From Lachnospiraceae bacterium (GTDB lineage: Bacteria; Bacillota; Clostridia; Lachnospirales; Lachnospiraceae), in contig JBJENY010000054.1 of assembly GCA_051880435.1 (NCBI GenBank), positions 616 through 64,615 on the forward strand: DNA of 64,000 nucleotides, written 5' to 3'. A model generated the notes under the pieces. It saw nothing but the letters and a program-made list of their open reading frames with translations. It was not told where the DNA came from and did no database searches. Positions 2,900 to 62,179 of the stretch are shown piece by piece; position 1 is the first letter of the stretch; every line of letters begins with the position of its first letter. Made by a program: the position numbers and the translations under genes.

Positions 2900-3094
2900 T
2901 TATCTGGAATGACTTCTTTTAATTGTATCGTTTTTAATATGATAAGTAGGGGGTTTATTATCCGGGAGACAATGAGAAGCATCTTCATATTCTTCCCCTA
3001 CCATGTTGGAGTTCGTAAGACCATATAAAGTTGCACCTATGGCACAAATGACACCTAATGTAATACCAATGATAAGGCCTAATATTATGTTCAT
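2900..3094 (-). CDS. small single-pass membrane protein (64 aa)
   Basis: ATG 3094 is preceded by GGGAGG 9 nt upstream. One TM helix (IILGLIIGITLGVICAIGATLYGL). It starts 4 nt after the stop of the upstream same-strand gene. The track start at 3121 lacks an RBS. Confidence 0.5.
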   Translation of the reverse strand: MNIILGLIIGITLGVICAIGATLYGLTNSNMVGEEYEDASHCLPDNKPPTYHIKNDTIKRSHSR

Positions 3095-3098
3095 ATAA

Positions 3099-4241
3099 TC
3101 AATCCTCCCTTCTGTTTGCATATGATGTCATATGCCTAGAGGCTAACTGCTGCATTCCTAATTTGTATTTGTTATAACCTTTGATGCCACTGACTACAAA
3201 AATTGCGGTTATAATAACCGGAAAAATAAACAGCATAAGTAGTGGAGGAAAAGAAAGAAACAGTATGGAAAAAAGGCTGTATATGGTACAGGCAATGGCA
3301 GCATTTTTAATAAACATACCAATAAAACGTCCTTTTTCAACCGGAAGATTACCTACAACTTTTCCAGTCTGTCCGTTTACGATAATCAGCTCTTTTCTAT
3401 TATCAAACTGAATGTTAACAAAGTAAGCAGGCAACAGGGCATAGGTCACATCCTGTAATTCGTATTCCTCTTCTGTGTCGGATTCACTAAAGTTTGCAAT
3501 GTTACCGGATTTTGTAGGAATCATGTTTGCTTTAGGACATGAATTTAAAATCTCTAAATTCATGAATCGACGGCAGCGTTTTTGCACCTGTCCCTTTAAT
3601 GCATCCTGGGGAACATCGTATTTGTCTGCATAATATCCTGATAAATAAGTCACATCAAAATCTTCTAAATCTTTCATATGATAAGGTTCTAATCGACGAG
3701 ATAAATCGTTACTAAGTTTTAACGAAGCATCCATAGGTACGTTTTCGTAAGTACAGGAAACATCCCTGTTATAGATATATCGGTCGTTATCATCTCTAGC
3801 GGTGATTGTGGTTTTCTTTCGTACATAAGCACTATACAGCCAATAAGGAATATAAATGGCACGGACTTTTTCCGGTGTCAGTTCCTTGATTTTGGCTGGA
3901 ACATAACTGCCATGGCTAAAATGTTCTTTGATACTTGATAATGCCTGATTTTCCGTAATTTTAAATGGTATAATTTTTTTCGGTTTTTCCTCCTTTGATA
4001 CACGCGCATGCACAATGGATGGAGAACCACAGTAGCTGCAAAATGTGGAAGACTGGGTTTTTCCTACCATTAAGTCAGCACCACAGGAAGAACAGTGATA
4101 GATGTTCATTTCCATATATTCTTTTTCCTGTGAATCGTATTCCTCTTTTGATGAAAGTCCGTCACAGTAACTGCATTTCATCATACCGGATTCCACATCA
4201 TATACGAGCGGACCGCCGCAATTTGGACATTTAATATTCAT
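3099..4241 (-). CDS. double zinc-ribbon, C-terminally membrane-anchored protein of unknown function
   Basis: 380 aa. Two CxxC..CxxC modules (CPNCGG..CSYCDG; CSSCGA..CSYCGS), a soluble domain of about 230 aa, and hydrophobic C-terminal helices (AIACTIYSLFSILFLSF.., IFPVIITAIFVVSGI). Confidence 0.7.
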   Translation of the reverse strand: MNIKCPNCGGPLVYDVESGMMKCSYCDGLSSKEEYDSQEKEYMEMNIYHCSSCGADLMVGKTQSSTFCSYCGSPSIVHARVSKEEKPKKIIPFKITENQALSSIKEHFSHGSYVPAKIKELTPEKVRAIYIPYWLYSAYVRKKTTITARDDNDRYIYNRDVSCTYENVPMDASLKLSNDLSRRLEPYHMKDLEDFDVTYLSGYYADKYDVPQDALKGQVQKRCRRFMNLEILNSCPKANMIPTKSGNIANFSESDTEEEYELQDVTYALLPAYFVNIQFDNRKELIIVNGQTGKVVGNLPVEKGRFIGMFIKNAAIACTIYSLFSILFLSFPPLLMLFIFPVIITAIFVVSGIKGYNKYKLGMQQLASRHMTSYANRRED

Positions 4242-4514: not shown

Positions 4515-6650
4515 ATGAATATTACAAACTTAGAGATGACACAGGCTACAATAGAAATATTCGGTGGATTTATTTGCATTATGCTGGCACTGATTATCAT
4601 GATAAATGGTTATGAAAGAAAAAGCTGGAAATTGTTGAAATGGATGACTTTCTCTGTTTCCGGAATCTTTTTCTCCGATGCGCTGGCTTACATTTTTCGA
4701 GGTAATACCGGCCCATTGGCAATGTTGTTTACCAGATGTTGTAATTTTCTGGTGTTTTTATTCAATGTTGTATTGGTTAACATGTTTATTCATTATGTTT
4801 ATAGTTTGTTACAGGAAAAAGGTGTAGTGCCAAGTAAGATATATAAAAATATTGTGGGTATTTGTGTGATATTAAATATTGCCATACTGATTACCAATTG
4901 GTTTACAAAATGGATGTACTATTTTGATGAATCTAATTGTTATCATAGAAATACCGGATGGTATGCATACACAGTATTGGGCCTTGTTTGTATTCTTACA
5001 AGCTGTGTCATGAGTATCCGGTATCGGAAGGCGATAAGAAAAACAATGCTTGCGGCCCTGTTGTTTTATGCTGTTGCACCGGTAATTGCCATTGTAATTC
5101 AGGCCTTTATTTACGGAATATCCATTACCAATATTGGAATCTTTATCGCATTGATTTTCATGCTTCTAGCATATTTAAAGGAATGGAGTAAAGCGAAGGA
5201 AAGCAACGATAAGGAACGAAAATCCCGTGATATTGTTATTTTAATGGTAATCATGACAATTAGTATGAGTGCCTCTGTTATTTCATGCATTGTATCCATT
5301 GATCATATTTCCCAAAAAAATTCGAAAAGTAATAGTATTCTGATTGCCCATATGGTAAATGACCGCATAGAAAATGAATTTCTAAGACCGATTGTGGTGG
5401 CGGAAACCATGTCTAATGATTATAGTCTGAAAGAGTATATGAAAAAGAGTGGAACCGTTTCGCCGAAAAGTGTTGAAAAAGAGGTGGCGGCATATTTGGA
5501 GTCTATTCGTATCGGGTTTGGATATCAGATGGTATTTTCTGTTTGTGATGCATCAAAAGCATATTATACCTATGATGGCATCAGCCAGTATGTAGATATG
5601 GATGATAAGGGACATGATATCTGGTACAAGCTTTTTTTAGAAGAAGGAAAACATTATGATCTGGATGTGGATACAGATGCAGCCAATCATTGGGAACTGT
5701 CTGTTTTTGTGAATACGGAGATTAAAGATGAAAATGGTAAGCTTTTGGGAGTTTGTGGCGTTGGTGTTGAAATGACAAAGCTGCAGGAGCTTTTGAAACA
5801 GTTTGAAACAGAATACAATGTGAAGATAGCTTTGATTGACAAAGAAGGTTTGATTCAAATCGATTCGGATGGTAAAAGAATAGAGAAAGACTACATTGAA
5901 AATGATTATTTGAAAAATGTTAATTCCAAAGAATTTTATTATGAAGAAGGAGCAGATACCAGTCGTATGACAAAGTATATGGAGGACCTGGATTGGTATC
6001 TTGTTGTGGAGGATTATGAGCCGGATAAAATGAACGCCTTTAAACTTGCCACCTCAAGTATTATTATCTTCATAATAGGATTAATAATGATGGGAATTGT
6101 TTTTTCTGTTATTACAATTCGTGAGCGAAAGGCATCCAGAGAGCTTCAGGAGAAAAGAAAAATATCCATTACAGATGATATGACAGGTCTCCTTAATCAT
6201 CGTGCTTATGAAGAAGACTGTGTAAAAATTGTTGAAAATAATAGTATCCCCCAGATTACCATGATTATGATGGATGTCAATGGATTAAAGACAGCCAATG
6301 ACACTTATGGACATATGGCGGGAGATGAGCTGATTATCGGAGCGGCCAAGTGTATTCAGACCGCTATGGGTGAATATGGAAAGGTGTATCGAATCGGTGG
6401 GGATGAATTTGTGGCAATTTTAGAATGTACAAAGGAACAATTAGAGGATATGCTTCAAACCTTTGAACACATTTTAGAAAGCTGGAAAGGCTCATATCAA
6501 TGTGAATTATCCATTTCTAAAGGTGTTGTGATGTTTGGAGAACATGAAAATCTCACTCTTGAAGAGATGAGAAATCTGGCAGACAAACGGATGTATGAGG
6601 ATAAGAATGAATACTATAGACGCACTGGTAAGCCCCATAGGAAAATGTAG
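4515..6650 (+). CDS. membrane-bound diguanylate cyclase (polytopic N-domain + Cache-like sensor + GGDEF)
   Basis: The C-terminal domain carries DVNGLKTANDTYGHMAGDE and YRIGGDEFV. About 6-7 N-terminal TM helices, an extracytoplasmic segment, then another TM. GGGAG lies 7 nt before ATG 4515; the track start 4509 is TTG. Confidence 0.85.
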   Translation: MNITNLEMTQATIEIFGGFICIMLALIIMINGYERKSWKLLKWMTFSVSGIFFSDALAYIFRGNTGPLAMLFTRCCNFLVFLFNVVLVNMFIHYVYSLLQEKGVVPSKIYKNIVGICVILNIAILITNWFTKWMYYFDESNCYHRNTGWYAYTVLGLVCILTSCVMSIRYRKAIRKTMLAALLFYAVAPVIAIVIQAFIYGISITNIGIFIALIFMLLAYLKEWSKAKESNDKERKSRDIVILMVIMTISMSASVISCIVSIDHISQKNSKSNSILIAHMVNDRIENEFLRPIVVAETMSNDYSLKEYMKKSGTVSPKSVEKEVAAYLESIRIGFGYQMVFSVCDASKAYYTYDGISQYVDMDDKGHDIWYKLFLEEGKHYDLDVDTDAANHWELSVFVNTEIKDENGKLLGVCGVGVEMTKLQELLKQFETEYNVKIALIDKEGLIQIDSDGKRIEKDYIENDYLKNVNSKEFYYEEGADTSRMTKYMEDLDWYLVVEDYEPDKMNAFKLATSSIIIFIIGLIMMGIVFSVITIRERKASRELQEKRKISITDDMTGLLNHRAYEEDCVKIVENNSIPQITMIMMDVNGLKTANDTYGHMAGDELIIGAAKCIQTAMGEYGKVYRIGGDEFVAILECTKEQLEDMLQTFEHILESWKGSYQCELSISKGVVMFGEHENLTLEEMRNLADKRMYEDKNEYYRRTGKPHRKM

Positions 6651-7159: not shown

Positions 7160-8032
7160 TTAATCATCTTCCTCTGCGTCATTTTCATTTGAGTATTCCT
7201 CGTCATCTTCTTCCATTACGTCATCGCTGTCATCATCTTCCTCTTCGTTAACTTGTGTGTCGTTATCATCATCAGTATCATCACTGTCGTCGCTTTCATC
7301 ATCGTTGTTGTCATCGTTGTCATCGTCGATGATATCATTATCATTAATATGTTCATTCTCTCCAGTATCAACATTTTCTGTTGTAGATTGTTCTTCGTAC
7401 CTTTCTTTATACTCGGCTGTATTAGCTACAGATGTTGTACTTTGTTCGGATTCGGAATTCTGTTCTTTTGTTGTATCTGGTTTATCTTTATCTGTCGTGA
7501 TTTTGATTGTCCCATTAAAGTGGTTTTCTAATTCTCTTGTTATATCATCTGATATCTGTTTTTTCCAGGATTTATGATGTGAAGAGACGCTAATATGTAT
7601 TATGCCATTTTCATGCAAATATCCCATCAATATGGCACGGTCGGCTAGTTCGTCCAACACAACTTCTATTTTTTTTCCTTTGTAGTGGTAATTATTTATT
7701 AGATTTTCTCCGTCAGAATTTATTGCTTTAATACTGGTTACGTGTCTTTGGCGGTTTACTGTTATCTCTACATCCGGGTTAATCTGCATTCGAATGACAC
7801 CATATGATACATATGAGGAATACCAGGAACCAAGAAGAAACAGACATAGACATGCAGCCATTACCATCCATTTTAATGCATAGGTTTTTGTATGAGTTTC
7901 TTCTCTGTAAGCTACCACGTTCGATACAATTTGGCCTGTCTTGTAATTCATATTTGCAATGTTTAAAAAACTACCTTTTTCATCTAAGGCAACTGCGTAT
8001 GCTTCATGGCACTCCATGATTAAATATTTCAT
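7160..8032 (-). CDS. rsgI: anti-sigma-I factor RsgI-like, with poly-acidic C-terminal tail
   Basis: The N-terminus MKYLIMECHEAYAVALDEKGSFLNIANMNYKTGQIV resembles the RsgI N-domain. One TM (WMVMAACLCLFLLGSW) and a juxtamembrane extracytoplasmic domain containing INPDV. The last ~100 aa are mostly D/E/N. ATGA start/stop overlap with the sigma gene (8029-8032). Confidence 0.8.
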   Translation of the reverse strand: MKYLIMECHEAYAVALDEKGSFLNIANMNYKTGQIVSNVVAYREETHTKTYALKWMVMAACLCLFLLGSWYSSYVSYGVIRMQINPDVEITVNRQRHVTSIKAINSDGENLINNYHYKGKKIEVVLDELADRAILMGYLHENGIIHISVSSHHKSWKKQISDDITRELENHFNGTIKITTDKDKPDTTKEQNSESEQSTTSVANTAEYKERYEEQSTTENVDTGENEHINDNDIIDDDNDDNNDDESDDSDDTDDDNDTQVNEEEDDDSDDVMEEDDEEYSNENDAEEDD

Positions 8033-8772
8033 TCTTTTTTTCCTCCCCGTTTTATTTGGCATAAATGTCCTCGGATAATTTCAAAACCATTTGTAAATGC
8101 AAGAAAAATGGCAATGATATATTTACGATGCCTTTCTAATGTCTTACGTTGCAATCCGGTTGCTTCACACAACTTTCCGATAGGTAATTGTTTTTTATCA
8201 ATCATTTCATCCAGTAAATTTCTGTGTGATTTAACATAATCCAAGGCATCCATGCATACCTGTAAGGTTCTGTCCTGCTTTGGACAAGAATCTGCTACTT
8301 CTGTCATTGAGATGGCAAATTCACTTAACTGGCTAATAAAATGATTGATTTCTGCTTGTGTGGCCATTGTCTGTTCTATTTCGCAAATATCGTCTGATTT
8401 GTCTTGTATTTTGTTACCACGAGTTTCTTCTTTATCACTATATGAATTATTAAATGGCTGATCCAAAGAGATCATTCCTCTATGTTTTTTTTCTTGACGG
8501 TAATAATCAATTAGGCGATTGCGTATGACACGTTCAGCAAATTTTATAAATGTACCTCTATTCTTCTGGTACTGTAGCATTGCCTCATAAAATGCAAACA
8601 TAGCGATGCTTAATTCATCATCCAAGCCATCTTGGGGAGATTTTTTTGTAAATTTTGTTGTTTGTACCTTAATAAAAGGCATATACTGACGAATAAACTG
8701 GTCCGCAGTATCTTGGTCATGTTTTGCACGCTCAAGTATATTTGTTAAATTAACTTCTTCATCCTTTATCAT
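8029..8772 (-). CDS. sigI: RNA polymerase sigma factor SigI-like
   Basis: FIRQYMPFIKVQTTKF..DDELSIAMFAFYEAMLQY..FIKFAERVIRNRLIDYYRQE is colinear with B. subtilis SigI as I recall it. GGGAGAAAGGA RBS precedes ATG 8772. It is coupled to an RsgI-type gene. Confidence 0.85.
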   Translation of the reverse strand: MIKDEEVNLTNILERAKHDQDTADQFIRQYMPFIKVQTTKFTKKSPQDGLDDELSIAMFAFYEAMLQYQKNRGTFIKFAERVIRNRLIDYYRQEKKHRGMISLDQPFNNSYSDKEETRGNKIQDKSDDICEIEQTMATQAEINHFISQLSEFAISMTEVADSCPKQDRTLQVCMDALDYVKSHRNLLDEMIDKKQLPIGKLCEATGLQRKTLERHRKYIIAIFLAFTNGFEIIRGHLCQIKRGGKKE

Positions 8773-8916
8773 AGTTATCCTTTCTCCCAATAAACCAACT
8801 TGATTTGACGCATAACATCCATAACTTTAGTCGTGGTAATGATAATATATTTCTTTAGTCATGGGAAAACAAGCAGAGGTAACTTATTTAAAAGTACGCC
8901 CTGCCTGTTTTCATAA

Positions 8917-9642
8917 CTAATCATCTTCGCCATCATTATTAATGTCATCATCATTGATATCGTCGTCATCAGAGTCATCGGTATCGTCGTCATCGGTATC
9001 GTCGTCATCGGAGTCATCGGTATCGTCGTCGTCGGAGTCATCGGTATCGTCGTCGTCAGTAGCATCAGATTCATTGGTAACATTACCGGAATCGTCATTG
9101 CCGTCATCAGAGTCATCATCAATATCATCCGAATCGTCATCATCTGAATCAACAACATCATCAGTATCATCATCGATGTCGTTGGAATCATCATCCGTGT
9201 CGTTGGAATCGTTATCTGTGTCATCGGAATCATCATCCATGTCGTCTGAATCGTTATCTGTGTCATCGGAATCATCATCAGAGTCGTCTGAATCATTATC
9301 AGTATTATTCACATTGGCTTCACTGGAATCATCATTAGGTTGCGTTGCTACAACTTCTCCATTATAAGCATTCACTTTACATTTCTGTTCCACACCGTTG
9401 ACCAGTAAACGGATTTCATATGTACCATTTTCCTCATTGTATACACAAGATATAAATTGAGCATCTGATACATTAAGATGGTCCATTACAAGTTCCTTTG
9501 CTTTATCTTCAGTGATTGAAATGTTTCCTGCTGTTCGTTGTATTGTTGTTTCTTTCAAACTGTTTTCTTTGGTGCTTTCGCATCCTACTAACAATGTTGC
9601 AACTGCTAGTGCACTCATAATTACATAAATTTTTTTCTTCAT
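8917..9642 (-). CDS. PepSY-like lipoprotein with ~135-aa Asp/Ser/Thr/Asn-rich tail
   Basis: Lipobox LLVGC. PepSY-like segment ITEDKAKELVMDHL..YEIRLLVNGVEQKCKVNAYNGEVV, then DSDDSDDDSDDTDNDSDD... to the C-terminus. GGAGGAG RBS. Confidence 0.75.
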   Translation of the reverse strand: MKKKIYVIMSALAVATLLVGCESTKENSLKETTIQRTAGNISITEDKAKELVMDHLNVSDAQFISCVYNEENGTYEIRLLVNGVEQKCKVNAYNGEVVATQPNDDSSEANVNNTDNDSDDSDDDSDDTDNDSDDMDDDSDDTDNDSNDTDDDSNDIDDDTDDVVDSDDDDSDDIDDDSDDGNDDSGNVTNESDATDDDDTDDSDDDDTDDSDDDDTDDDDTDDSDDDDINDDDINNDGEDD

Positions 9643-16299: not shown

Positions 16300-17535
16300 T
16301 TAATCCATATATTTTTTTACAAGTACAGTTGCATTATGTCCGCCAAAGCCTAATGAATTGCTGATGGCAATATTGACAGGTGTATGAATACCGTTACCCT
16401 TTGTATAATCCAGGTCGCATTCAGGATCATCTTCTTGTAATCCGACAGTAGGATGAATATAGCTATGATTAATAGATAAAATACTGGTAATCAGTTCTAC
16501 AGCACCACCACCGGCAAACATATGGCCAACCATTGATTTTGTTGAGTTAATGTGCAAATGATAAGCGTGCTCTCCAAAGGCAAGCTTAATGGCTCTTGTT
16601 TCATATAAATCATTGTAAACCGTACTGGTACCGTGAGCATTAATATAATCAACCTGTTCCGGAGTTACCCCTGCGTCCTCCATTGCCATGGTCATGGCAC
16701 GTGCTGCAGCAGAACCATCTTCTAATGGGGTTGTGACATGATGGGCATCACAGGTGGCACCATAACCACCTATCTCAGCATAGATATGTGCACCTCTTCT
16801 TTTGGCATGCTCTAATTCCTCCAATACTAATACACCGGCACCTTCCCCGGTAACAAAACCATTTCTTCTTTTATCAAATGGGATGGAAGCACATAAGGGG
16901 TCTTCCGACTGGGTAAGAGCGGTTAATGCTTGAAAGGATGCTACACCAAATCTGCTGACAGAACTGTCTACACCACCGGCTAATATTACGTCAGCTTCTC
17001 CATGCTGAATACTTCGAAACGCCTCACCAATGGAGTTGGTACCTGTTGCACAGGCTGTCACCACATCAATACATTTTCCCTGAAAACCATGGATTAATGC
17101 CACATTTGCTGCCGCCATATTTCCAAGAATCAGTGGGGCAGTAAGTGGATGGATTTTTCCCGGTCCTTTTTCTATCAGCTTATCATATTCTCTTTCGATT
17201 CCCATAAGACTTCCGATACCGGAACCGATGCTGACGCCTAAACGGAAGCTGTCTTCCTTCTGTACATCAATACCGCTGTCTTCCATGGCTTCTTTTGCGG
17301 CTACGGCGGCAAACTGACTAAAACGGTCCATTCTTTTTGTAATTTTAGGTTCCAGATAATCCTTGGCATTAAAATCCTTTACTTCTGCGGATAATTTTGC
17401 TTTATAATCTGTAGTATCAAAATTCTGTATGACATCAATACCTACTTTGGTTTGCAAAATACTATCCCAAAAGGTGGAAACTCCGATTCCGATTGGCGTT
17501 ACCGCACCCATTCCTGTTACTACTACACGCTTCAT
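16300..17535 (-). CDS. fabF: beta-ketoacyl-ACP synthase II
   Basis: MKRVVVTGMGAVTPIG start. Active-site Cys context VVTACATGTNSIGEA. His motifs CDAHHVTTP and INAHGTST. GFGGHN near the C-terminus. Confidence 0.93.
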   Translation of the reverse strand: MKRVVVTGMGAVTPIGIGVSTFWDSILQTKVGIDVIQNFDTTDYKAKLSAEVKDFNAKDYLEPKITKRMDRFSQFAAVAAKEAMEDSGIDVQKEDSFRLGVSIGSGIGSLMGIEREYDKLIEKGPGKIHPLTAPLILGNMAAANVALIHGFQGKCIDVVTACATGTNSIGEAFRSIQHGEADVILAGGVDSSVSRFGVASFQALTALTQSEDPLCASIPFDKRRNGFVTGEGAGVLVLEELEHAKRRGAHIYAEIGGYGATCDAHHVTTPLEDGSAAARAMTMAMEDAGVTPEQVDYINAHGTSTVYNDLYETRAIKLAFGEHAYHLHINSTKSMVGHMFAGGGAVELITSILSINHSYIHPTVGLQEDDPECDLDYTKGNGIHTPVNIAISNSLGFGGHNATVLVKKYMD

Positions 17536-17614
17536 AATTTCAGTCCTTTCCTGTGTCTGCATAAAAGTAATTGTGTGTTGAATTCTTGTAAGATAATATG
17601 TAAAGTGTTTTTAA

Positions 17615-18691
17615 TTAACCACGCAAGAATCCTTGTTTTAGCTCATTCATGATTTCTGATACAGTGGTAATTTCCTTTATTTTTCCTACATTTGCACCAC
17701 AAAAAATCAATCCTTGTTCGATATCTCCGGATACTGCACGAATCAACGCATCTGTAATGCAGTATGGAATTTCTGCCGGATTACATTTTGCAAGACATCC
17801 AAGACATCGTTCCACCTTACAGTTACCTATTTCTGTATCTGCCAAAAATGTATTTTGTAAAGCCCGGCCCGGCATTCCTACCGGACTTTTGATAATGCGG
17901 ACATCTTCTTCTTTTGCATTGATATAAGCTTCTTTATACCGGATATCAGCATCACATTCTTTTGTTGCAACAAAGCGGCTTGCTACCTGTACACCATCTG
18001 CACCAAGACTTACTGCATGAGCTACATCTGAGGCATCAAAAATTCCGCCGGCAACAATAACAGGTATTTTTTTGTCATATTTTTCTTCCTGTTGATGTAC
18101 GCTTTCAATGATTTTTTTGATTTCGGTATCATAATCAAGAGTTCCTGCAGTATCTTTTTCCAGTTCGTCCTTTGAAAAACCTAAATGACCACCGGCTTTT
18201 GGACCTTCAATTTCTACAAAGTCAGCAGTTTTCTGATATTTTTTATCCCACATTTTAAAAAGAATTTTGATTGCTTTGTCGGAAGATACAATAGGAGCAA
18301 ATTTGGTATCTGTGTCCTCTAATAATGCAGGCAGTGTAACAGGAAGTCCTGCTCCACAGATTACAACATCGGCTCCGGCTTTGGCAGCAACTTTAACGTG
18401 TTCTTCGTAATCCTTTAATGCAACCATTACATTAACACCTACAAGCCCACCGTTTGCCTGTGCCTTTGCAAGCTTAATGTGTTTTTCAATGGCACGGTTA
18501 TTTGCTTCCTTGTGATTGTTTACAAAATCGGGCTCATCATAGCCAATCTGTGCGGTAGAGATAATACCAATGCCTCCTTCTTTCGCAACCGCGCCTGCAA
18601 GGCTGCTTCGGCTGACACCTACCCCCATTCCTCCCTGAATAATGGGAATTCTGGCAATTTTATTACCAATTCTTAGCTCTTTCATCTGCAT
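17615..18691 (-). CDS. FabK-like enoyl-ACP reductase II / nitronate monooxygenase-family flavoprotein with Cys-rich C-terminal extension
   Basis: IIQGGMGVGVS, GAGLPV and VIVAGGIFD motifs of the FMN TIM-barrel NPD/FabK family. It is adjacent to fabF. Extra CLGCLAKCNPAEIPYC (Cx2Cx3Cx7C). Confidence 0.7.
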   Translation of the reverse strand: MQMKELRIGNKIARIPIIQGGMGVGVSRSSLAGAVAKEGGIGIISTAQIGYDEPDFVNNHKEANNRAIEKHIKLAKAQANGGLVGVNVMVALKDYEEHVKVAAKAGADVVICGAGLPVTLPALLEDTDTKFAPIVSSDKAIKILFKMWDKKYQKTADFVEIEGPKAGGHLGFSKDELEKDTAGTLDYDTEIKKIIESVHQQEEKYDKKIPVIVAGGIFDASDVAHAVSLGADGVQVASRFVATKECDADIRYKEAYINAKEEDVRIIKSPVGMPGRALQNTFLADTEIGNCKVERCLGCLAKCNPAEIPYCITDALIRAVSGDIEQGLIFCGANVGKIKEITTVSEIMNELKQGFLRG

Positions 18692-18823
18692 GTCTCCTTA
18701 ATTTGAATAAATCTATTTTTAATACATTTTCTTCCTGTTAAACTGCAAATATTTCAACTTTATGTATTTGAATATATTAAGCAGATAGGATTGTTAATGA
18801 TTAATTATCGCTTATTATTTATC

Positions 18824-18875
18824 GAAACCAATTATTGAAACCAATTATTAAAATTAATTATTGAAACCAATTATT
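18824..18875. repeat. 4 x 13-bp direct repeat GAAACCAATTATT (third copy AAAATTAATTATT)
   Basis: Counted directly: units start at 18824, 18837, 18850 and 18863. The array lies 130-185 bp upstream of the fabK-like start codon. Confidence 0.9.
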
Positions 18876-19009
18876 GCTAGTTTCTACATTGTTTTTTTGT
18901 TTTATTCCTTGTGTAATTCATTCATAATCTTTCAATATCAAACATTACCACTATGTAGTAGAGTTGTCAATAAGATGTAGTAAATAAAACTATGTTTGCA
19001 ATTAAGAAC

Positions 19010-19585
19010 TAAGAAAATACCTACTAAATTGAGATAAATTAAAAGTATGGTAGGTAATTGGCAGGCTGAAAAGAAGAAAGAGCAAGCAAAATACCTACTA
19101 AATTGAAGAAAATCAAAAGTATGGTAGGTAATTGGCAGGCTGAAGGGAAGAAAAAGCAAGCAAAATACCTACTAAATCAAAGAATATCAAAAGCTTGATA
19201 GGTAATTGGCAGGCTGAAAGGAAGGAAAAACATAAAATTTACCTACTAAATATGTAATAAGTAGAAAATAGTAGGTAAATCCCTAAAGATAAATAAGAAA
19301 AAGCAAGCAAAATACCTACCAAATTGAAAAAAATCAAAAGTATGGTAGGTAATTGGTAGGCTGAAAAGAAGAAAGAGCAAGCAAAATACCTACCAAATTG
19401 AAATAAATCAAAAGTCTGGTAGGTAATTGGCAGGCTGAAAAGAGGAAAAAGCAAGCAAAATACCTACTAAATCAAAGAATATCAAAAGATTGGTAGGTAA
19501 TTGGCAGGCTGAAGGGAAGAAAATGCATAAAATATACCTACTAAATTGCGAATATGAAACAAAATAGTAGGTAACCTGACACCAA
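19010..19585. repeat. 8 tandem 74-bp units, each with an inverted repeat TACCTACYA ... TRGTAGGTA
   Basis: TACCTAC starts at 19018, 19092, 19166, 19240, 19313, 19387, 19461 and 19535, giving spacings of 74,74,74,73,74,74,74. The loop (20-24 nt, A-rich) and the purine-only spacer are also conserved. Confidence 0.95.
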
Positions 19586-19589
19586 TATT

Positions 19590-20351
19590 TTACTTGCTAA
19601 ATTTTAAAACAGATATTACAGAATTTAATATCGTTATTATGATGCAGACAATCAAAGCCTTGTAATAATCACTGACTTCACATGTGTCGGTAAGAATTGA
19701 CATTCCATCTAAAAGCTTGATGGGAAGATAGTCCTTGATTTTTCCAATCATGCTAAGCAGATACATTGCAGCCACACATCCTCCGCTTCCAAGTAATACA
19801 GTTCCTGTATTCTGAGAGAAAGTGGAAAATAACATAATAAAGGAAATCATCATGATACCAAAACACCAGGTGAAAAGAGCGGCAATAAAGTGCTGTGTTG
19901 CGATTGCATTATCCCAGAAATAGCTGTTATAAAAATAGGTGATGGCATAGCAGGCAAAATATCCTCCTGTCCATACTGTTATCAGGATGGCAAATTTTGC
20001 AGTGATGATTTTCCATCTTGCATAGCCCTTGGCAAATATGGAAATTAAAGTTCCTTTTTGTAATTCGTTTACTAAAATTCCACTGAATAAAAGTACAAAA
20101 GCAATTAATGCCATGGGAATGTTTTTATAAAACTGGGTCCATGAAGTTAAGGCATCTACAGATATTTCGTTTATCACAAATCCGCTTTCTTCCAATTCCT
20201 CTGACATGGTTTTCATCATCCAGGGAGTAAGCTTTGCCAGTGCCGGATTCATAATACCAAAAAGAATAAATAATATGGATATTACAAGAAGCTTGCTTGT
20301 TCTGATAAGCTCTATCCATTCCTTCTTAAAAAATGCGAAAAATGTTTTCAT
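19590..20351 (-). CDS. ABC-2-type transporter permease
   Basis: About 6 TM helices. ATGA overlap with the upstream ATPase gene (20348-20351). Start MKTFFAFFKKEW. Confidence 0.75.
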   Translation of the reverse strand: MKTFFAFFKKEWIELIRTSKLLVISILFILFGIMNPALAKLTPWMMKTMSEELEESGFVINEISVDALTSWTQFYKNIPMALIAFVLLFSGILVNELQKGTLISIFAKGYARWKIITAKFAILITVWTGGYFACYAITYFYNSYFWDNAIATQHFIAALFTWCFGIMMISFIMLFSTFSQNTGTVLLGSGGCVAAMYLLSMIGKIKDYLPIKLLDGMSILTDTCEVSDYYKALIVCIIITILNSVISVLKFSK

Positions 20352-21178
20352 TTGCCGATTACCTCCATGAATAATTGTTCCAAATTCCATTCTTTTTCCT
20401 TTATGTCGGAAATAGGAATGTCATGCTCTGCCATATATTGCTTGAGTTGTTGCAATTTGTTTTCGTCTAAGTCTTTTACAGAAATGGTAATATCATAATC
20501 GCTTATATTTTTATGAGAAGTCTTTATTTCCTCCATGGAGCCGGAAAGCATGATTTTTCCATTGTGTAGCAATGCCAGCTGATCGCAAATCCGTTCCACA
20601 TCACTTAAAATGTGAGTAGAAAATAAGATGGTTGTTTTTTCCTTTGCAGCCACTAAAACATCCATGATTTCCTTTCGACCTACAGGGTCTAATGCAGAGG
20701 TGGGTTCATCACATATCAAAAGCTTTGGTTCGTGAAGCAGCGCCTGTGCAATACCAAGACGTTGTTTCATGCCCCGGGAAAAGCCTTTAATTCGATGGGT
20801 TTCATTTGCTAATCCAACTAAAGAAAGCATTTCTTTACTTCGTTCATTGAGAAGCTTTTTTTCCATACCAATAATGCTTCCGCAAAACTGAAGATATTCC
20901 CCTGCAGTCATATAATCATAAAATTCCGGGACATCAGGTAAATATCCGATATAACGGTTAGTAGGAGCATTGCCGTATATGACAGGTTCTCCATTTACCA
21001 ATATATTTCCCCGGTCCGGTTTTAACATGCCAAGAACCATTTTCATGGTTGTGGTTTTACCGGCACCATTTTTTCCTACAAATCCGAATATGGAATGTTC
21101 CGGTACATCAAGGGAAATACCATCTAAAACCTTTTTTGTTCCGAAGCTTTTTTCCAGATTTTCAATATGTAACATCAT
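20348..21178 (-). CDS. ABC transporter ATP-binding protein
   Basis: Walker A GKNGAGKTT, signature FSRGMKQRL, Walker B LLICDEPTSALD. Confidence 0.93.
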   Translation of the reverse strand: MMLHIENLEKSFGTKKVLDGISLDVPEHSIFGFVGKNGAGKTTTMKMVLGMLKPDRGNILVNGEPVIYGNAPTNRYIGYLPDVPEFYDYMTAGEYLQFCGSIIGMEKKLLNERSKEMLSLVGLANETHRIKGFSRGMKQRLGIAQALLHEPKLLICDEPTSALDPVGRKEIMDVLVAAKEKTTILFSTHILSDVERICDQLALLHNGKIMLSGSMEEIKTSHKNISDYDITISVKDLDENKLQQLKQYMAEHDIPISDIKEKEWNLEQLFMEVIGK

Positions 21179-22631: not shown

Positions 22632-22881
22632 ACAGTCTCCTTTCTGGTTAAATTCTTTTTTAGGCATTTGCGAAACGCACTTTGTTGATGTTATTTTTAT
22701 ATGCTTATTTTACAATAGAAATAATGGTCCATAAAGGGATTGTTACGATATATTCGTAAATTAAATCAACTGTTAGGAAACTTTTTCGGTGCGACTTATT
22801 GCTGATAAATCGTAAGCAGGCCCTTCTAGAAAAAGACACCATAATATGATATATTTTGATAAGGATAAAAGGTTGGGAGGA

Positions 22882-24045
22882 ATGGCGTTGAAATTTATTC
22901 ATTTAGGCGATTTGCATATTGGAAAAATGCTTGGGGATTTTGATTTGTTAGAAGACCAAAGCTATATTTTACAACAGATTTTAAAGATTGCTGATGATAA
23001 TCAGGTTGATGGTGTTTTGATTGCAGGAGATATTTATGACCGTTCGATTCCTAGTGAAGGTGCGGTGAGTTTATTTGACTGGTTTGTTGGAGAACTGGCA
23101 AAAAGGAAATTAAAGACTTTTATGATTTCCGGGAATCATGATTCCGATGAACGTTTGAATTTTGGCAGTAGTTTATTTACTGCAAATGAGATTTTTATTT
23201 CGGCTAAATATAATGGGCAGCTTTATAAAAAAACGTTACAGGATGATAACGGAAATCTAAACATATATTTAATGCCCTTTATAAAAGCTTCCCAGGTAAA
23301 ACATTTTTATCCGGAGGAAGATATCGTTTCCTATGATGATGCTGTGAGAGTAGCCATTGAAAAAAGTAATATTAAGAAAGAAGAACGGAATGTGTTAGTT
23401 GCTCATCAGTATGTAATTAAAATGGGAAGTGATCCAATACTTGCCGGTTCGGAAAGTATGGCAGTTAAAAATGTTGGAACAATAGAAAAAATTAATGCAG
23501 CTCATTTTGATGACTTTGATTATGTGGCGTTAGGTCATATTCATTCTGCTCAGGAAATTACAAGAGAAACCATTCGATATTCCGGTTCTCCCTTAAAATA
23601 TTCTTTAAGTGAGGCAAAACATACAAAATCAGTTCCCATTGTATCCTTTGGGGGAAAAAATGATGTTTTGGTGGAGTACGCCGAATTATGTCCCAAAAGG
23701 GATTTGCGTCATATAAAAGGAACTATGGGTCATTTGTTAGATAAGAAAAACGTTATGGGACAAAATGATTTTATTTATGTAACATTAACAGATGAAGAAA
23801 TAATAAATGATGCCATGACAATTTTTCAACAGGTGTATCCCAATACGATTAAAATTGATTATGATAATTCCTACACAAAGGAAATACAGCCCATTGATAT
23901 TGAGCAGATTGCAAACAACAGGTCTTTTGACGACATGATAGCTGAATTTTATTATAAAATGTATGGCTGTGAGATAACAGAGGAAGAACGAAAGGTTATG
24001 AAGGAGATTGCAAAGGAGGTGGGGGTTTCAGATGAAGCCGATTAA
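22882..24045 (+). CDS. sbcD: exonuclease SbcD (Mre11-like)
   Basis: FIHLGDLHIG, GDIYD and GNHD phosphoesterase motifs. The true start may be TTG 22888 (7 nt after GGGAGG), giving MKFIHLGD. Confidence 0.9.
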   Translation: MALKFIHLGDLHIGKMLGDFDLLEDQSYILQQILKIADDNQVDGVLIAGDIYDRSIPSEGAVSLFDWFVGELAKRKLKTFMISGNHDSDERLNFGSSLFTANEIFISAKYNGQLYKKTLQDDNGNLNIYLMPFIKASQVKHFYPEEDIVSYDDAVRVAIEKSNIKKEERNVLVAHQYVIKMGSDPILAGSESMAVKNVGTIEKINAAHFDDFDYVALGHIHSAQEITRETIRYSGSPLKYSLSEAKHTKSVPIVSFGGKNDVLVEYAELCPKRDLRHIKGTMGHLLDKKNVMGQNDFIYVTLTDEEIINDAMTIFQQVYPNTIKIDYDNSYTKEIQPIDIEQIANNRSFDDMIAEFYYKMYGCEITEEERKVMKEIAKEVGVSDEAD

Positions 24046-27000
24046 ATTAATAATAAGTGGATTTGGACCTTATGGCGATACCATGCCTGCAATTGAATTT
24101 GAAAAATTTACAGATAAGGGTTTATTTTTAATATCCGGAGATACCGGTGCAGGAAAAACAACCATATTTGATGCCATTAGTTTTGCTTTATATGGAACCA
24201 CAAGTGGAATTTATAAAAATACAAAAAATTTACGAAGTGAATATGCTTCACCGGATGTGGAAAGTTATGTAGATTTTTATTTTTTTCATCAGGGACATGA
24301 TTATCATATTTGTAGAAAACCTTCTTTTGAAAGAATCAATCGAAATGGGAAGCTGATAGAAGAACCGGAAAAGGTTATTTTTTATTATGAGGATGGAAGT
24401 ACCGTAGAAGGAACCAGAAATGTGGATGGCACGAAGGATGATCCGGGTGTTATCAGAAATCTATTGCATATTGATGCAAAACAGTTTAAGCAAATTGCAA
24501 TGATAGCACAGGGGGAATTCTGGGATTTATTAAATGCTAAGACCGAGGAACGGACTGTTATTTTAAGAACGATTTTTAATACCGATTCTTACAAAAATAT
24601 GGAAGTGAAATTAAAAGAACGGATGAATGCAAGCTATGTTTTGCGAAAAGAAACGGAAAATAGTATTTTGCAGTACTTTAGTGATGTTGTTGTGGATGAA
24701 GAATCAGAACATGCAGAGGAATTGTTACGTTTGCAGGAAAATGCCGGAGATAGTAAAAGTGCCTGGAATGTTGAGGAAATGATTGGCATCATAGAAAAAA
24801 TTATCAAATCTGATTTGCTAAAACAGAAAATGTTCAAGGAACAATTAGAGAAGCAGGATAAGAAATTAACAGAAAAAAATAATATGTACGGGGTTGCACA
24901 AACGAATAATGCTTTGCTGCAAAAAGTAGATACTTTAGAAAAGGAATATGAAAAACTACAGGAAAAACAACAGGAAATAGAGCAACGATCCTTTACATTG
25001 CAAAAACAACAGGATGCTACATATAAAGTTAAGCCTGAGTATCTGGCGTGGAAAACGAAATGTGATGAATTAAATGCTTCTCAAAGGGATATGGATGAAG
25101 CAAAGATGCTGCTAACAAAAGCCCTTGCCCTGAAAAAGAAATCACAGGATTTATTTGCAGAGGTATCCAAAGAAGAACCAAAACAGGATGAACGTAAAGT
25201 GTTGGTTTCGAAAATGAAGGAGTCAGAAAGGGATTATGCAACCAGGGATGCCTTATTAGAGGAGATAAAAACAATAGAGGATGCTCTTAAAAAAATGGGA
25301 CAGTTAGAGAAATCTGTGTTGTCAAATGAGCAAGCGTTACGGGAACAAGTGAAATCAATAAACGCAACAATTCAACAGCTAGAGGATGTTCCTGCAAAAT
25401 ATATGGAAACCTCAAAGGAAAAGGATAAGTTTTTTCATTTAATGAATCAAATGAGCCAAATTCAAAATGAAATGATTCCGGCTTATGAAAGAAAAAAACA
25501 ACAATATGAAAACCAGCAGAATCAGTTTGAAATGGCAAAAAAATCCTATATTGACGCAAGAAATAAAGCAAATCACGCAAAGGATGTCATTGATGGTTGT
25601 CGTGCCGGCATATTGGCAAAAGATTTAGAGGAAGGTGTTCCATGTCCCGTATGTGGTGCAACCCATCATGAAAAGCTGGCAATTCTTCCAGACGAATATA
25701 TGACAGAAGAACAGTATAAAGAATTAGAAGCAGCTTATCATAAAGAACAGGATAATTATGAAAAAAAAGTTGGAGCTACAGAGGGCGCAAAAAAATCCTT
25801 TGAAACAGAACAGGAGCATTTAACACAATCTATTCATTCATGTTTGAAAAATGAGTTAGTAAATAAAAATGAGCTTGTGAATGAAAAGGATCCGGATGCA
25901 ATAGATGTTGCTAAGTTGATACAGATATTGAAGGATACCCTTAATCAGGTAGAAGAAAAATATGAAGCAATCAGTCATAAGGAGTCGTCCTTAAAAGAAT
26001 CCTGTGAAGAATTGGAGCGTTTAAGAACTACCTTAGAAACAGTGCGGGATAAGGAATTAGAAGCTATTGTAAAGGAAAAAGAAGATATATTGCTACAAAA
26101 AAATGAAAATCATGCATTGCTGGCAAAAAAGAAGGCAACGTTAGATTCCATCGGAACCTTACCATATAAAGATTTCAGTGAAGCTGTAGCACAAAGAGAA
26201 AAAATAGAAAAGGAAATCAGTGATTTTGACAATCTGTTACAAAAAACAAGAAAAGACAGAGACGAAGGAATTACAAGATATGCAAAAGCAAAGTCCACTG
26301 TGGAGACCTTACAATTGACAGTAGAAAAAAATTGTAAGGATGAAAAGGATTTAAAAGAAAAATTTGATGCTTTATTAGTAGAACGGGAGCTTACCGATGA
26401 AAAAGAATTTTTGTCTTTTGTTGTTCCTGAAGATAACATGAAAGAAACAGAAAAAACCATAGCAGAGTATCATGAGAACGTGAAGGCTGTTACTGCTCAA
26501 TTAGAATCCGCCCAGGCAGAAGCAAAAGATAAGACAATGATTGATGTGGATGAGATACTTGATGAAATAGCGGAACAAACAAATTTGGTAGATGAAATTC
26601 GGGAAAACTATAATTTGATTACTTATCGGATAAATACAAATCAGGATAAGTTATCTCATATTAAAGAAAAAATATCTGAACTTTTACACAGTCAAAAAGA
26701 AAATGCGATGTATACTAAATTATACCATTTGGTAACAGGACAAACGGGAAAAGGAAAGATTACATTAGAACAGTTCATACAGGCGGCAGGTTTTGACCAA
26801 ATTATTCAGGCAGCTAACCGTCGATTGCTTCCTATGACGGATTACCAGTATGAATTATCTCGACAAAATGATTCCTTGGGTAAGAAAAGTAATACCTTCT
26901 TAGATTTGGAAGTCACAGATAATTTTACAGGTCATAAACGTCCTGTTGGTAATCTGTCCGGTGGAGAAAGCTTTAAGGCATCACTTAGTCTTGCACTAGG

Positions 27001-27250
27001 CTTGTCGGATACCGTTTCTTCCAATCTTGGTGGCGTACAAATGGATGCTTTATTTGTGGATGAAGGATTTGGAACCTTGGATAAAAAATCTATGGATAAT
27101 GCAATGGATATTTTATTAAATCTTGCAGGTGCTAATAAATTAGTTGGTATTATAAGTCATAGAGAGGAACTAATGGAAAACATTCCCCAGCAAATTAAAG
27201 TATCTAAAACAAAAAATGGAAGTCAGATGAAAGTAGAATTAGGATTATAA
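24032..27250 (+). CDS. sbcC: exonuclease SbcC (Rad50-like ATPase)
   Basis: Walker A GDTGAGKTTIFDAISFALYG, long coiled coil with zinc hook CPVCG, signature LSGGESF, Walker B LFVDEGFGTLD. AGGAGGTGGGGG RBS. Overlaps the sbcD end. Confidence 0.92.
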   Translation: MKPIKLIISGFGPYGDTMPAIEFEKFTDKGLFLISGDTGAGKTTIFDAISFALYGTTSGIYKNTKNLRSEYASPDVESYVDFYFFHQGHDYHICRKPSFERINRNGKLIEEPEKVIFYYEDGSTVEGTRNVDGTKDDPGVIRNLLHIDAKQFKQIAMIAQGEFWDLLNAKTEERTVILRTIFNTDSYKNMEVKLKERMNASYVLRKETENSILQYFSDVVVDEESEHAEELLRLQENAGDSKSAWNVEEMIGIIEKIIKSDLLKQKMFKEQLEKQDKKLTEKNNMYGVAQTNNALLQKVDTLEKEYEKLQEKQQEIEQRSFTLQKQQDATYKVKPEYLAWKTKCDELNASQRDMDEAKMLLTKALALKKKSQDLFAEVSKEEPKQDERKVLVSKMKESERDYATRDALLEEIKTIEDALKKMGQLEKSVLSNEQALREQVKSINATIQQLEDVPAKYMETSKEKDKFFHLMNQMSQIQNEMIPAYERKKQQYENQQNQFEMAKKSYIDARNKANHAKDVIDGCRAGILAKDLEEGVPCPVCGATHHEKLAILPDEYMTEEQYKELEAAYHKEQDNYEKKVGATEGAKKSFETEQEHLTQSIHSCLKNELVNKNELVNEKDPDAIDVAKLIQILKDTLNQVEEKYEAISHKESSLKESCEELERLRTTLETVRDKELEAIVKEKEDILLQKNENHALLAKKKATLDSIGTLPYKDFSEAVAQREKIEKEISDFDNLLQKTRKDRDEGITRYAKAKSTVETLQLTVEKNCKDEKDLKEKFDALLVERELTDEKEFLSFVVPEDNMKETEKTIAEYHENVKAVTAQLESAQAEAKDKTMIDVDEILDEIAEQTNLVDEIRENYNLITYRINTNQDKLSHIKEKISELLHSQKENAMYTKLYHLVTGQTGKGKITLEQFIQAAGFDQIIQAANRRLLPMTDYQYELSRQNDSLGKKSNTFLDLEVTDNFTGHKRPVGNLSGGESFKASLSLALGLSDTVSSNLGGVQMDALFVDEGFGTLDKKSMDNAMDILLNLAGANKLVGIISHREELMENIPQQIKVSKTKNGSQMKVELGL

Positions 27251-56145: not shown

Positions 56146-56258
56146 TTGTATAAAAATATATACATAATAGTAAAAATTTAGAAATTATATGGCTTTTGGC
56201 TATTTCAAAATACAGCTGTGAATAATCGGGGATAATTAAATTTTAATATTAGTAAAAT

Positions 56259-56342
56259 AAAAAGGCATGGATTGTGTACCGACACCAAAATGTTAGAGTG
56301 AAATCTAACAATTGGAGGTAGGAACGCAGTCCATGCCTTTTT
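56259..56342. terminator. terminator-like split palindrome (A5-GGCATGGA ... TCCATGCC-T5, 58-nt interior)
   Basis: Arms at 56259-56271 and 56330-56342. The interior contains the hairpin TGTTAGA/TCTAACA (56291-56310). Confidence 0.5.
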
Positions 56343-56464
56343 GTGTATCCAATGATTCAAAATCTTTTTTCATTATATGGATTTCTTAAATCAAAAATAG
56401 TAATCCCCGTTAGTACATTTAAAGAGTAATGCAGGAGTATGAATGCATTTGTTTGATGAAGCAA

Positions 56465-56595
56465 AGAAGAAATATAAGAAAGATATTCAGGAAAGATATC
56501 CAGAAAAGATATCCAGGAAAGACATTCAGGAAAGATATCCAGGAAAGACATGCAGGGAAGATATAAAGAAAAGATATTAAGAAAAATATTAAACA
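56465..56595. repeat. about 10 tandem 12-14-nt units, consensus CAGGAAAGATATC
   Basis: Read directly: ..ATTCAGGAAAGATATCCAGAAAAGATATCCAGGAAAGACATTCAGGAAAGATATCCAGGAAAGACATGCAGGGAAGATAT... Confidence 0.85.
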
Positions 56596-56811
56596 TATAT
56601 ATTCGAGTATGATATTCACGAAAAAAGTAACAAATTCGCTTGCTTAAATGATATGAAAAGTATGTTTAGAGATATAAGTAAAAATTATATCAAAAAAATA
56701 ACATTTATTTACAATATTTTGTATAAAGTGACAATAGAAAAAGGTAGACAAATACAATTTATTGTGATAAAATAAATTTGTAGAAAATCAAAAGACATAA
56801 GGAGAGATTAT

Positions 56812-59847: not shown

Positions 59848-60045
59848 AAAAAACCTGCCAAATAGGGAAAATAAGGAAGTCTGGTAGGTAAATAATCATG
59901 CCTGAGGAAGAAAAAATAGGAGAAATACCTACTAAAAAGAGAAAATAGGCGAATTGGTAGGTAAATGAGTGGAATGAACGAAAGAAAAAACAGGAAAATA
60001 CCTACTAAAATAGAGAAGAGATGGAAATTAGTAGGTAACAGAGGA
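59848..60045. repeat. 3 tandem units (74/73-bp period) of the TACCTAC hairpin family
   Basis: Left arms at 59852 (AACCTGCCA), 59926 and 59999 (TACCTACTA). Right arms TGGTAGGTA (59882, 59955) and TAGTAGGTA (60029). Confidence 0.9.
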
Positions 60046-61849: not shown

Positions 61850-61871
61850 TAGAAATACGATAAAAATAAAT

Positions 61872-62141
61872 GAAAATTGATAATGAGAGAGAAACATAAA
61901 ATTATATGAAAATCCAAAATGAAATGAAAATCGATAATGAGAGAGAAACATAAAATTATATGAAAATCCAAAATGAAATGAAAATCGATAATGAGAGAGA
62001 AACATAAAATTATATGGAAATCCAAAATAAAATGAAAATCGATAATGAGAGAGAAACATAAAATTATATGGAAATCCAAAATGAAATGAAAATCGATAAT
62101 GAGAGAGAAACATAAAATTATATGGAAATCTAAAATCAAAT
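61872..62141. repeat. 5 x 54-bp near-identical tandem repeat
   Basis: GATAATGAGAGAG starts at 61879, 61933, 61987, 62041 and 62095, exactly 54 bp apart. Only a few substitutions between copies. The array ends 39 bp before the birA ATG. Confidence 0.95.
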
Positions 62142-62179
62142 GGAAACCGGAAAAATCAATTTATGAATGGAGTTAGAAA

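Follow-up and report, generated by a model that had tools for sequence, protein, structure and literature searches.

Introduction

The closest described counterparts of the element reported here are the repetitive extragenic palindromes (REP), bacterial interspersed mosaic elements (BIME) and REPINs of Proteobacteria, short extragenic palindromes which occur in many copies, as singletons or as regularly spaced clusters of alternating orientation (PMC3733652, PMC6006769, PMC3116915). They prefer gaps after genes, avoid divergent promoters and vary in copy number among relatives. A REP is defined by an unpaired GTAG or GTGG located 0–2 nt 5' of a hairpin, the loop of which comprises 2–5 nt (PMC6006769, PMC3733652). 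The associated RAYT (TnpA-REP) gene is as a rule flanked by REPs. Here we analyzed a stretch of 64,000 nucleotides (the window) from a Lachnospiraceae metagenome-assembled genome (MAG), in which a gene-free gap of 898 bp holds eight tandem palindromic units starting with TACCTAC. This array, array 1, is a locally amplified member of an apparently undescribed interspersed family of palindromic units of about 38–40 bp, the TACCTAC family. Sequence-conserved half-sites, an A/T dyad and spacing by whole helical turns lead us to favor, tentatively, a phased array of binding sites on duplex DNA.

The TACCTAC family shares with REP and BIME the extragenic palindromes, found singly or in regularly spaced clusters of alternating orientation, the preference for gaps after genes over divergent promoters, the differences in copy number among relatives and the tetranucleotides GTAG/CTAC, and a first-pass annotation made from the sequence of the window had listed a REP/BIME-like element among the possible roles of the array. 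As an analogy of general kind this was fair, but the tag and hairpin that define a REP are absent and the family is not a member. As hairpin criterion we applied a fully paired basal stem of 7–20 nt with a loop of 2–5 nt, or a bulged long hairpin. In the TACCTAC family GTAG is base-paired inside an arm of 11–12 bp, the stem comprises 9–12 bp and the unpaired centre about 15–21 nt. Furthermore the period is quantised by helical turns, and one and the same arm sequence recurs in different bacterial families and in Treponema. Its carriers, Clostridia and Treponema, are absent from the REP survey (PMC3733652).

Several systems in which repeats or palindromes serve as protein-binding sites were also compared. 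BIMEs themselves are also binding sites for IHF and gyrase. The sopC centromere of F consists of twelve 43-bp direct repeats, each with an inverted repeat bound by SopB, and shares with our arrays the tandem direct repeats with one inverted-repeat protein site each, a putative one in the TACCTAC family, on which a higher-order nucleoprotein complex would form. The TACCTAC arrays, however, are chromosomal and occupy many loci per genome; parA/parB, parM/parR and sopAB were not found near them among the window open reading frames (ORFs) or by Pfam annotation of flanking ORFs, and BLAST gave no plasmid match. Operators of about 40 bp with two inverted boxes about 16 bp apart are known from E. coli bioO, bound by BirA, from the PurBox pairs of B. 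subtilis PurR and from paired NrdR boxes. They share with our units two inverted boxes of about 12 bp, about three turns from centre to centre, and an A/T-rich middle, but have other box sequences and are single sites before a coherent regulon, whereas TACCTAC sites are amplified and their neighbors unrelated. The mycobacterial interspersed repetitive units (MIRUs) are variable-number tandem repeats with units of 50–100 bp and variable copy number, found at many intergenic loci and sometimes inside operons. Unit length, intergenic position and variable copy number are shared with the TACCTAC family, but MIRUs have no conserved palindromic arms and no sequence relationship to it, and we know of no report of helical-turn quantisation for them.

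Other candidates were rejected. DnaA boxes, NarL heptamers, the PurBox, the BirA operator, CsrA GGA sponges, sigma-54 promoters, integron attC sites, invertons and uptake sequences were considered and dropped for lack of a sequence match or context. The RTP/Ter sites of B. subtilis were dropped in the same way; the review consulted gives no comparable site sequence. A type III toxin-antitoxin array of the toxI type, in which short tandem repeats directly precede a ToxN/AbiQ-like toxin gene, was rejected on the basis of the neighboring genes: in the window these are the genes for an ABC-2 permease and an NMO/FabK-like protein, purA and an unassigned ORF, and across the family they are diverse.

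Results

Array 1 consists of eight phased palindromes

In each unit of array 1 TACCTACYA is followed by about 21 nt and TRGTAGGTA; in its longer form AAAATACCTACYAAAT is followed by about 20 nt, TRGTAGGTAAT and a spacer of some 30 nt rich in purines. TACCTAC starts at positions 19018, 19092, 19166, 19240, 19313, 19387, 19461 and 19535, which corresponds to a period of 74 bp with one of 73 bp.

19014–19574, no strand assigned: array 1, eight tandem units of 74/73 bp (Tandem Repeats Finder, unit list and alignment)
19018–19058, no strand assigned: palindrome of unit 1, TACCTACTA...TGGTAGGTA, given as example unit (unit list and pattern scan)
19531–19574, no strand assigned: unit 8, the anchor unit, 16 bp from the stop codon of the ABC-2 permease gene (comparison with relatives)

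Tandem Repeats Finder (TRF) called the array at 19014–19548 (period 74, 7.2 copies, score 637) and, in a second call at 19014–19574, a higher-order period of 295 bp, equal to four units, with 90% identity. Units 1–4 and 5–8 are a block duplication of 295 bp, and the units are therefore not independent observations. The purine-rich strand is the plus strand, and the spacers are about 80% alike. The pattern TACCTACYAAA-N14-24-TRGTAGGTAA has nine matches in the window as compared to 0.00 expected from shuffled sequence; two of them belong to a second array (array 2, see below). In the window the arm centres lie 32 bp apart inside a unit and 42 bp apart between units, about three and four turns, respectively. 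Only in array 1 can the inverted repeat be extended to about 20 nt at 80% complementarity. The arms occur in the states CTA/TAG in units 4 and 8, CCA/TGG in units 5 and 6 and CTA/TGG in units 1, 2 and 7; in unit 3 (start 19166) the right arm is degenerate through a G-to-A change.

The first-pass annotation had given the same eight starts, period and arm states, including the degenerate unit 3, and all of these were recovered. It had also named the gap as the largest non-coding stretch, and positions 18692–19589 (898 bp) are indeed the longest ORF-free stretch of the window. That the gap is almost entirely one array was overstated: array 1 takes up 561 of the 898 bp, the remainder being a promoter-like block and a 13-bp repeat in 4.5 copies, and the three units of array 2 had been overlooked. 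A coding function was rejected, in line with the earlier claim that no RBS-led ORF is conserved across units, since 74 bp is not a multiple of 3 and minus-strand ORFs of 71–73 aa start with TTG and cross the units out of register. ORFs running through the 63-bp arrays of the family are explained by low-complexity sequence.

Units follow each other at whole helical turns

The family unit consists of TTACCTACTAAA, 15–17 bp with an A/T tract at the dyad, and TTTAGTAGGTAA. Across the family the distances between successive units were 53, 62–66, 73–74, 83–86, 94–96, 116, 148, 158 and 178–182 bp. Distances off this lattice were 58, 59, 91, 129 and 144 bp, and one of 56 bp which spans an N gap. The Rayleigh R of the family periods has its maximum at 10.6 bp. 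For 46 unit types with unrelated loop and spacer R is 0.81, a value reached by none of 20,000 nulls drawn uniformly from 50–100 bp. Neighboring units without any similarity of loop or spacer likewise keep 73 bp (locus L130), 74 bp (L036/L050 and L055) or 85–86 bp (L041). The remark in the first-pass annotation that 74 bp is close to seven helical turns turned out to be its most informative point, as the family periods step by about 10.6 bp.

The centre between the arms is 93% A/T at the dyad, and 100 of 222 loops have an A4 or T4 tract in the middle, compared to 48 ± 6 in shuffles. AA/TT periodicity peaks at 10.5 bp in 21 of 30 arrays, a signal to which the TAAA/TTTA in the arms itself contributes.

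Arms are conserved as sequence, not through pairing

The first-pass annotation had described each unit as a covarying hairpin. In the eleven units of the window 98% of the cells pair and a single pair varies (U.G in five units, C-G in three and U-A in three). No pair has changed on both sides, and the covariation score was matched by 177 of 500 shuffles. Because of the block duplication the variation of the window arms represents at most two mutational events. In the family, counted per locus, the 7-nt core showed 2 compensated versus about 45 uncompensated changes (16 G.U, 16 A.C and 14 other), and in the core columns of 150 distinct units 2 cells had changed on both sides versus 26 unpaired ones. 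The eighth arm position (Y/R) is the only free one. The claim of covariation thus did not hold. Both strands fold equally well (z = -8.6 and -10.5), and the ratio of G.U to A.C on the purine-rich strand is 61:39, or 45:39 when locus L064 is left out, which is not decisive. The arms are conserved as sequence and not through pairing, and show no strand preference.

The TACCTAC family in gut and rumen bacteria

We scanned one genome per species with the exact pattern, which fixed the arms in at least one unit per locus. The scan returned 72 loci, from which we dropped 13 singletons of unrelated phyla, roughly as many as chance would produce. The remaining 59 loci comprise 180 units in 32 species-level genomes. 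The check for further copies proposed in the first-pass annotation was therefore positive, both within the same genome and beyond it. Hosts are Lachnospiraceae, Ruminococcaceae/Oscillospiraceae, Saccharofermentans, Mageeibacillus, other Clostridia and three rumen Treponema, all from gut or rumen. Units occur as singletons or in arrays reaching 10–11 units, with at most five loci per MAG by the strict pattern and two in the 64-kb window. In genomes of 36–59% GC the arms are identical, while loops and spacers are unrelated between genomes.

At nearly all loci the sites are intergenic, located in about 30 co-directional, about 10 convergent and about 4 divergent gaps, and many arrays begin 7–40 bp past a stop codon. 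The array of L036 takes up its intercistronic gap except for 8 bp behind the stop codon and 19 bp ahead of the following start codon. In L042 an eight-unit array with a period of 63 bp (2971–3744) ends 69 bp upstream of an L10 leader (RF00557, 44.2 bits) followed by rplJ, and hence lies directly upstream of a ribosomal-protein promoter region. Flanking genes are mutually unrelated, and no family was enriched by Pfam annotation of 96 flanking ORFs or all-against-all clustering of 483 ORFs; recovered were only common families (ABC, TetR, GGDEF, ComEC, LepA) and no candidate partner. An operator of a regulon was rejected on these grounds, the sites being nearly always intergenic and their neighbors unrelated.

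Rfam 15 gave no match at the gathering threshold in the window and none over the arrays of 15 other loci, which agrees with the first-pass annotation, where the unit was not recognised as a described family; at E<=10 only chance-level matches (rox2, snR50 and similar) appeared in 18650–19650. BLAST against PLSDB plasmids and INPHARED phages yielded no match to the arrays, and three matches in viral contigs were chance-level singletons in coding DNA. A literature search by sequence words and topics found no description of the TACCTAC family.

To obtain an unbiased sample of periods we also scanned metagenomes with a two-gap pattern, but an unrelated low-complexity class with the words CTACCTAC/GTAGGTAGG dominated the result, and only about eight loci belonged to the family. 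Most of the loci L073–L192 (JGI Ga0116226–Ga0116231, Ga0209208 and others) belong to this abundant low-GC class, which carries CTACCTAC, GTAGGTAGG and TACCTAGG in both orientations and lies outside the TACCTAC family. A separate repeat type was seen in a Chitinophagales MAG (L067, 4500–4882), where short hairpins made of these same words, such as GACCTACAAAAAAAGTAGGTAG and TACCTACCAAATTAGTAGGTC, form a dense array; their loops measure 7 nt and they recur about every 43 bp.

In Oscillospiraceae and Saccharofermentans MAGs we observed a composite of paired TACCTAC palindromes 178–182 bp apart (223 bp in L031), present at three or more different loci (L006 850–1300, L007, L022, L026, L031, L034, L049, L057 and L070). 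A palindrome resembling a CsoR operator (ATATACCCCCAGGGGGTAT) is located about 22 nt outside one site, and a half copy (ATATACCCCCNCCCCCT) abuts the other. Some copies adjoin a Trns_repr_metal (CsoR-like) gene.

Copy number at the orthologous locus

The first-pass annotation had proposed to compare copy numbers between strains; among three relatives the orthologous locus carries 8, about 1.5 and about 0 units. In the locus L197, whose permease is 81% identical, one intact unit directly follows the same stop codon together with a decayed second arm; unit 8 is the sole unit intact there. In L198 (GCA_051880415.1; permease 74% identical, same synteny) the gap measures 474 bp and holds only a decayed relic. 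At the position of the anchor unit (4775–4830) L198 has a different inverted repeat, GCGTAGC-N23-GCTACGC followed by TTTTTAT, which is of equal loop length and partly homologous in its loop (TTTCATAATCGC versus TTTCATATTCGC). The comparison with L197 and L198 indicates that array 1 expanded in place in its lineage, the latest step being the four-unit duplication. A Logan contig of the same organism terminates inside array 1.

Gene neighborhood and other repeats of the window

The window represents ordinary chromosomal sequence on a 66,975-bp contig, with genes including argG, sigma/anti-sigma pairs, lrgAB, fabF, sbcCD, pfk, feoB, cdaA, HPr, purA and birA. Among its ORFs of at least 80 aa we found no cas, transposase, recombinase or partition genes. 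Around array 1 and at the second array the following features were located:

19590–20390, minus strand: ABC-2 permease gene (NCBI product of 253 aa); array 1 begins 16 bp past its stop codon
18942–18970, minus strand: promoter-like block TTGACA-17 nt-TAATGT with an upstream TG, conserved in the relative L198
18819–18876, no strand assigned: 13-bp direct repeat in 4.5 copies, TTATTGAAACCAA (TTGGTTTCAATAA on the gene strand; TRF)
17615–18691, minus strand: NMO/FabK-like gene
16300–17562: ketoacyl synthase gene, after the NMO/FabK-like gene
59849–60040, no strand assigned: array 2, three 73-bp units of the TACCTAC family, the first left arm degenerate

Array 1 ends upstream of the -35 element of the promoter-like block, 47 bp away from it, and its purine-rich strand is antisense to both neighboring genes. 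The block presumably drives the NMO/FabK-like and fabF genes. Between block and gene start, in the NMO/FabK-like leader, lies the 13-bp repeat, which is outside the TACCTAC family and may serve the fab genes as operator or leader element.

Array 2 is located 40 kb from array 1, between the purA terminator and an ORF at 60096. Its purine-rich strand is also the plus strand and in both arrays represents the leading-strand sequence as judged by GC skew. Loops and spacers of the two arrays are weakly similar, with homology beyond the arms judged by eye only.

The host genome harbors several unrelated purine-rich intergenic arrays. A 54-bp tandem array with 5.3 copies, 96% identity and a strongly purine-rich plus strand (61863–62146) lies between an ORF for a small membrane protein (61364–61849) and birA (62180–63157); its sequence is unrelated to the TACCTAC family and it has no Rfam match. 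Directly downstream of birA follows a 61-bp array in 3.3 copies (GATGATATAATGGAAGGATGAACTTGGGGCATAAGGAGTG..., 63182–63383), also with a purine-rich plus strand. A 13-bp repeat in 8.8 copies (GAAAGATATYCAG, 56478–56590) lies within a gene-free gap of 666 bp (56146–56811) upstream of a LysR-family gene.

On the minus strand at 8917–9642 an ORF of 241 aa, without Pfam family and with many in-frame repeats of 15–63 bp (GTCATCGGTATCGTC...), is predicted to encode an acidic Asp-rich repeat protein and adjoins a gene pair for a sigma factor and an RsgI-like anti-sigma factor (7160–8790). The genes sbcD and sbcC (22846–27250) lie 3 kb from array 1. SbcCD is a nuclease that cleaves DNA hairpins; this proximity is probably a coincidence, though relevant to the tolerance of palindromes.

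Discussion

Sequence-conserved half-sites, an A/T dyad and whole-turn spacing whatever the intervening sequence are expected of a phased array of duplex-DNA binding sites, whereas neither an RNA hairpin nor a hairpin of single-stranded DNA requires any of the three. We therefore favor a phased binding array on duplex DNA for a putative protein, a reading to which we assign a probability close to, but short of, an even one. Each arm would serve as a sequence-specific half-site, with the two arms of a unit about three turns apart and successive units five, six, seven, eight or nine whole turns apart, seven in array 1. All half-sites would then face one side of the helix, so that bound proteins could assemble cooperatively or wrap the DNA. 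The arrays lie in gene-free spacers, typically close behind a stop codon and ahead of the next promoter; bound by protein, they might act there as an architectural element, an insulator or a roadblock. The position of array 1 before its promoter-like -35, of the L042 array before the L10 leader and of the Oscillospiraceae sites about 22 nt from a promoter-like CsoR-type box gives a hint in this direction.

A number of points weigh against a duplex-DNA array. A partner protein was neither found nor nominated by these analyses. The restriction of the family to 32 species-level genomes of herbivore-gut Clostridia and Treponema fits a horizontally spread selfish element as well as a host function. 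Arrays inside operons or 7–40 bp from stop codons must be transcribed, and copy numbers of 8, about 1.5 and about 0 at one locus show that the large array is dispensable. Outside the core, in flanks and inner positions, there is a weak excess of complementarity, formed by sequences that differ from copy to copy (covariation score 0.141 versus 0.112 in shuffles, reached by 0 of 500), as predicted by a hairpin model; relatedness between units could also be its source. Finally, the arms were set by the search pattern, the classes of period depend in part on one another, and assembly of MAGs from short reads can go wrong at tandem arrays.

A more specific version of the duplex-DNA reading is that a dedicated DNA-binding protein, horizontally shared among herbivore-gut Clostridia and Treponema, assembles on the phased palindromes as a wrapped or one-faced array between the terminator and the next promoter. 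We regard this version as less likely than not. If true, the arrays would represent a new chromosomal architectural, insulator or roadblock system with a whole-turn spacing rule kept by selection.

Among the alternatives, a selfish element like REP, BIME or REPIN survives best, although we consider it unlikely. Single-stranded hairpins on the lagging-strand template would be copied to intergenic sites by a RAYT-like or IS200-like HUH/Y1 transposase encoded elsewhere, and arrays would arise by local amplification. The arms do hold CTAC...GTAG, the tetranucleotide recognised by RAYTs (PMC3733652, PMC6006769), and for Clostridia both IS200-type genes, as common, and RAYT Group 1 have been reported (PMC6006769, PMC5581495). 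The presence of several loci per genome, the preference for co-directional and convergent gaps, the differences in copy number between relatives, and the period, strand polarity, purine-rich composition and leading-strand polarity common to both window arrays would fit as well. However, GTAG is paired within the stem without an unpaired 5' tag, the loop comprises 15–17 nt instead of 2–5 nt, and the quantised period and A/T dyad are left unexplained. REP sequences are lineage-specific, whereas the TACCTAC arms are identical across families and in Treponema. A pair of empty and filled sites was not seen, the L198 locus being a decayed relic and not a clean absence. The search for a RAYT/Y1 gene suggested in the first-pass annotation found no Y1 transposase in the window, and tblastn with IS608 TnpA and E. 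coli RayT queries, a weak test, gave no match in about 190 fetched loci.

An element acting at the RNA level, with hairpins transcribed in untranslated or intercistronic regions as iterated weak terminators, 3' stabilisers or a sponge or processing array for an RNA-binding protein, appears rather improbable. Arrays starting 7–40 bp past a stop codon leave no room for a preceding terminator, the L036 array fills its intercistronic gap, and L198 carries a different hairpin with a T-run in place of the anchor unit. Of 14 co-directional loci with strong purine skew, 13 have their genes on the purine-rich strand, according to a combined reading without a dedicated tally. In array 1 a U-rich tail follows seven of eight hairpins on the strand of the flanking genes, the minus strand; the first-pass annotation had claimed this for each hairpin, and its suggestion of iterated terminators does not extend to the family, in which sense T-runs follow 17 of 107 units, 7 of them from array 1, and antisense ones 12 of 107. 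As intrinsic terminators we required a G+C-rich stem, a loop of 3–8 nt and an immediate 3' U-tract on the transcribed strand, and a scan of 18500–19800 returned 0 sites; the stem is AT-rich, with 4 G-C among 9 pairs, and the loop large. Stems conserved in sequence without covariation, equal folding of both strands without preference of G.U over A.C, and the absence of an Rfam match argue further against an RNA element. Polarity relative to the genes is inconsistent, the purine-rich strand of array 1 being antisense to both neighbors, and for RNA the quantisation by helical turns has no rationale.

We consider it very improbable that the arrays are neutral minisatellites, functionless copies of a chance palindrome or former terminator that arose through replication slippage or unequal recombination. 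The range of copy numbers at the orthologous locus, the recent duplication of a four-unit block and the other, unrelated purine-rich tandem arrays of the window would be expected of such a process. It does not account for arms that remain unchanged even in single arrays whose loops and spacers have lost all recognisable similarity, for the same 11–12-nt arms in 32 species including those of a different phylum, or for a constrained period.

A CRISPR or CRISPR-like array, with the palindrome of about 40 bp as repeat and segments of 25–36 nt as spacers, was already rejected in the first-pass annotation and is refuted to the point of negligible probability, because despite repeat and spacer lengths within the CRISPR range (38+25, 38+36) and mutually unrelated spacers in some family arrays only the 11–12-nt ends of the "repeat" are conserved while its centre is as variable as the spacers, the spacers of array 1 are about 80% alike, and no cas gene was found among the window ORFs of at least 80 aa or in the top 25 Pfam families of the 96 array-flanking ORFs.

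Within the databases and literature searched, the invariance of the arms across families and the helical-turn rule are new. Much is known about such interspersed palindromes in Proteobacteria, but our literature search found none described for the dominant fibre-degrading Clostridia of gut and rumen. In practical terms the arrays break short-read assemblies, as seen for the Logan contig, and can be mistaken for CRISPR arrays or structured RNAs. That invariant half-sites, the A/T dyad and the whole-turn period persist after the rest of the unit has diverged is an unusually clean signal, which makes the phased protein array on duplex DNA directly testable. If a partner protein is found, the TACCTAC family would define a new system of DNA and protein in organisms most of which are known only from MAGs.

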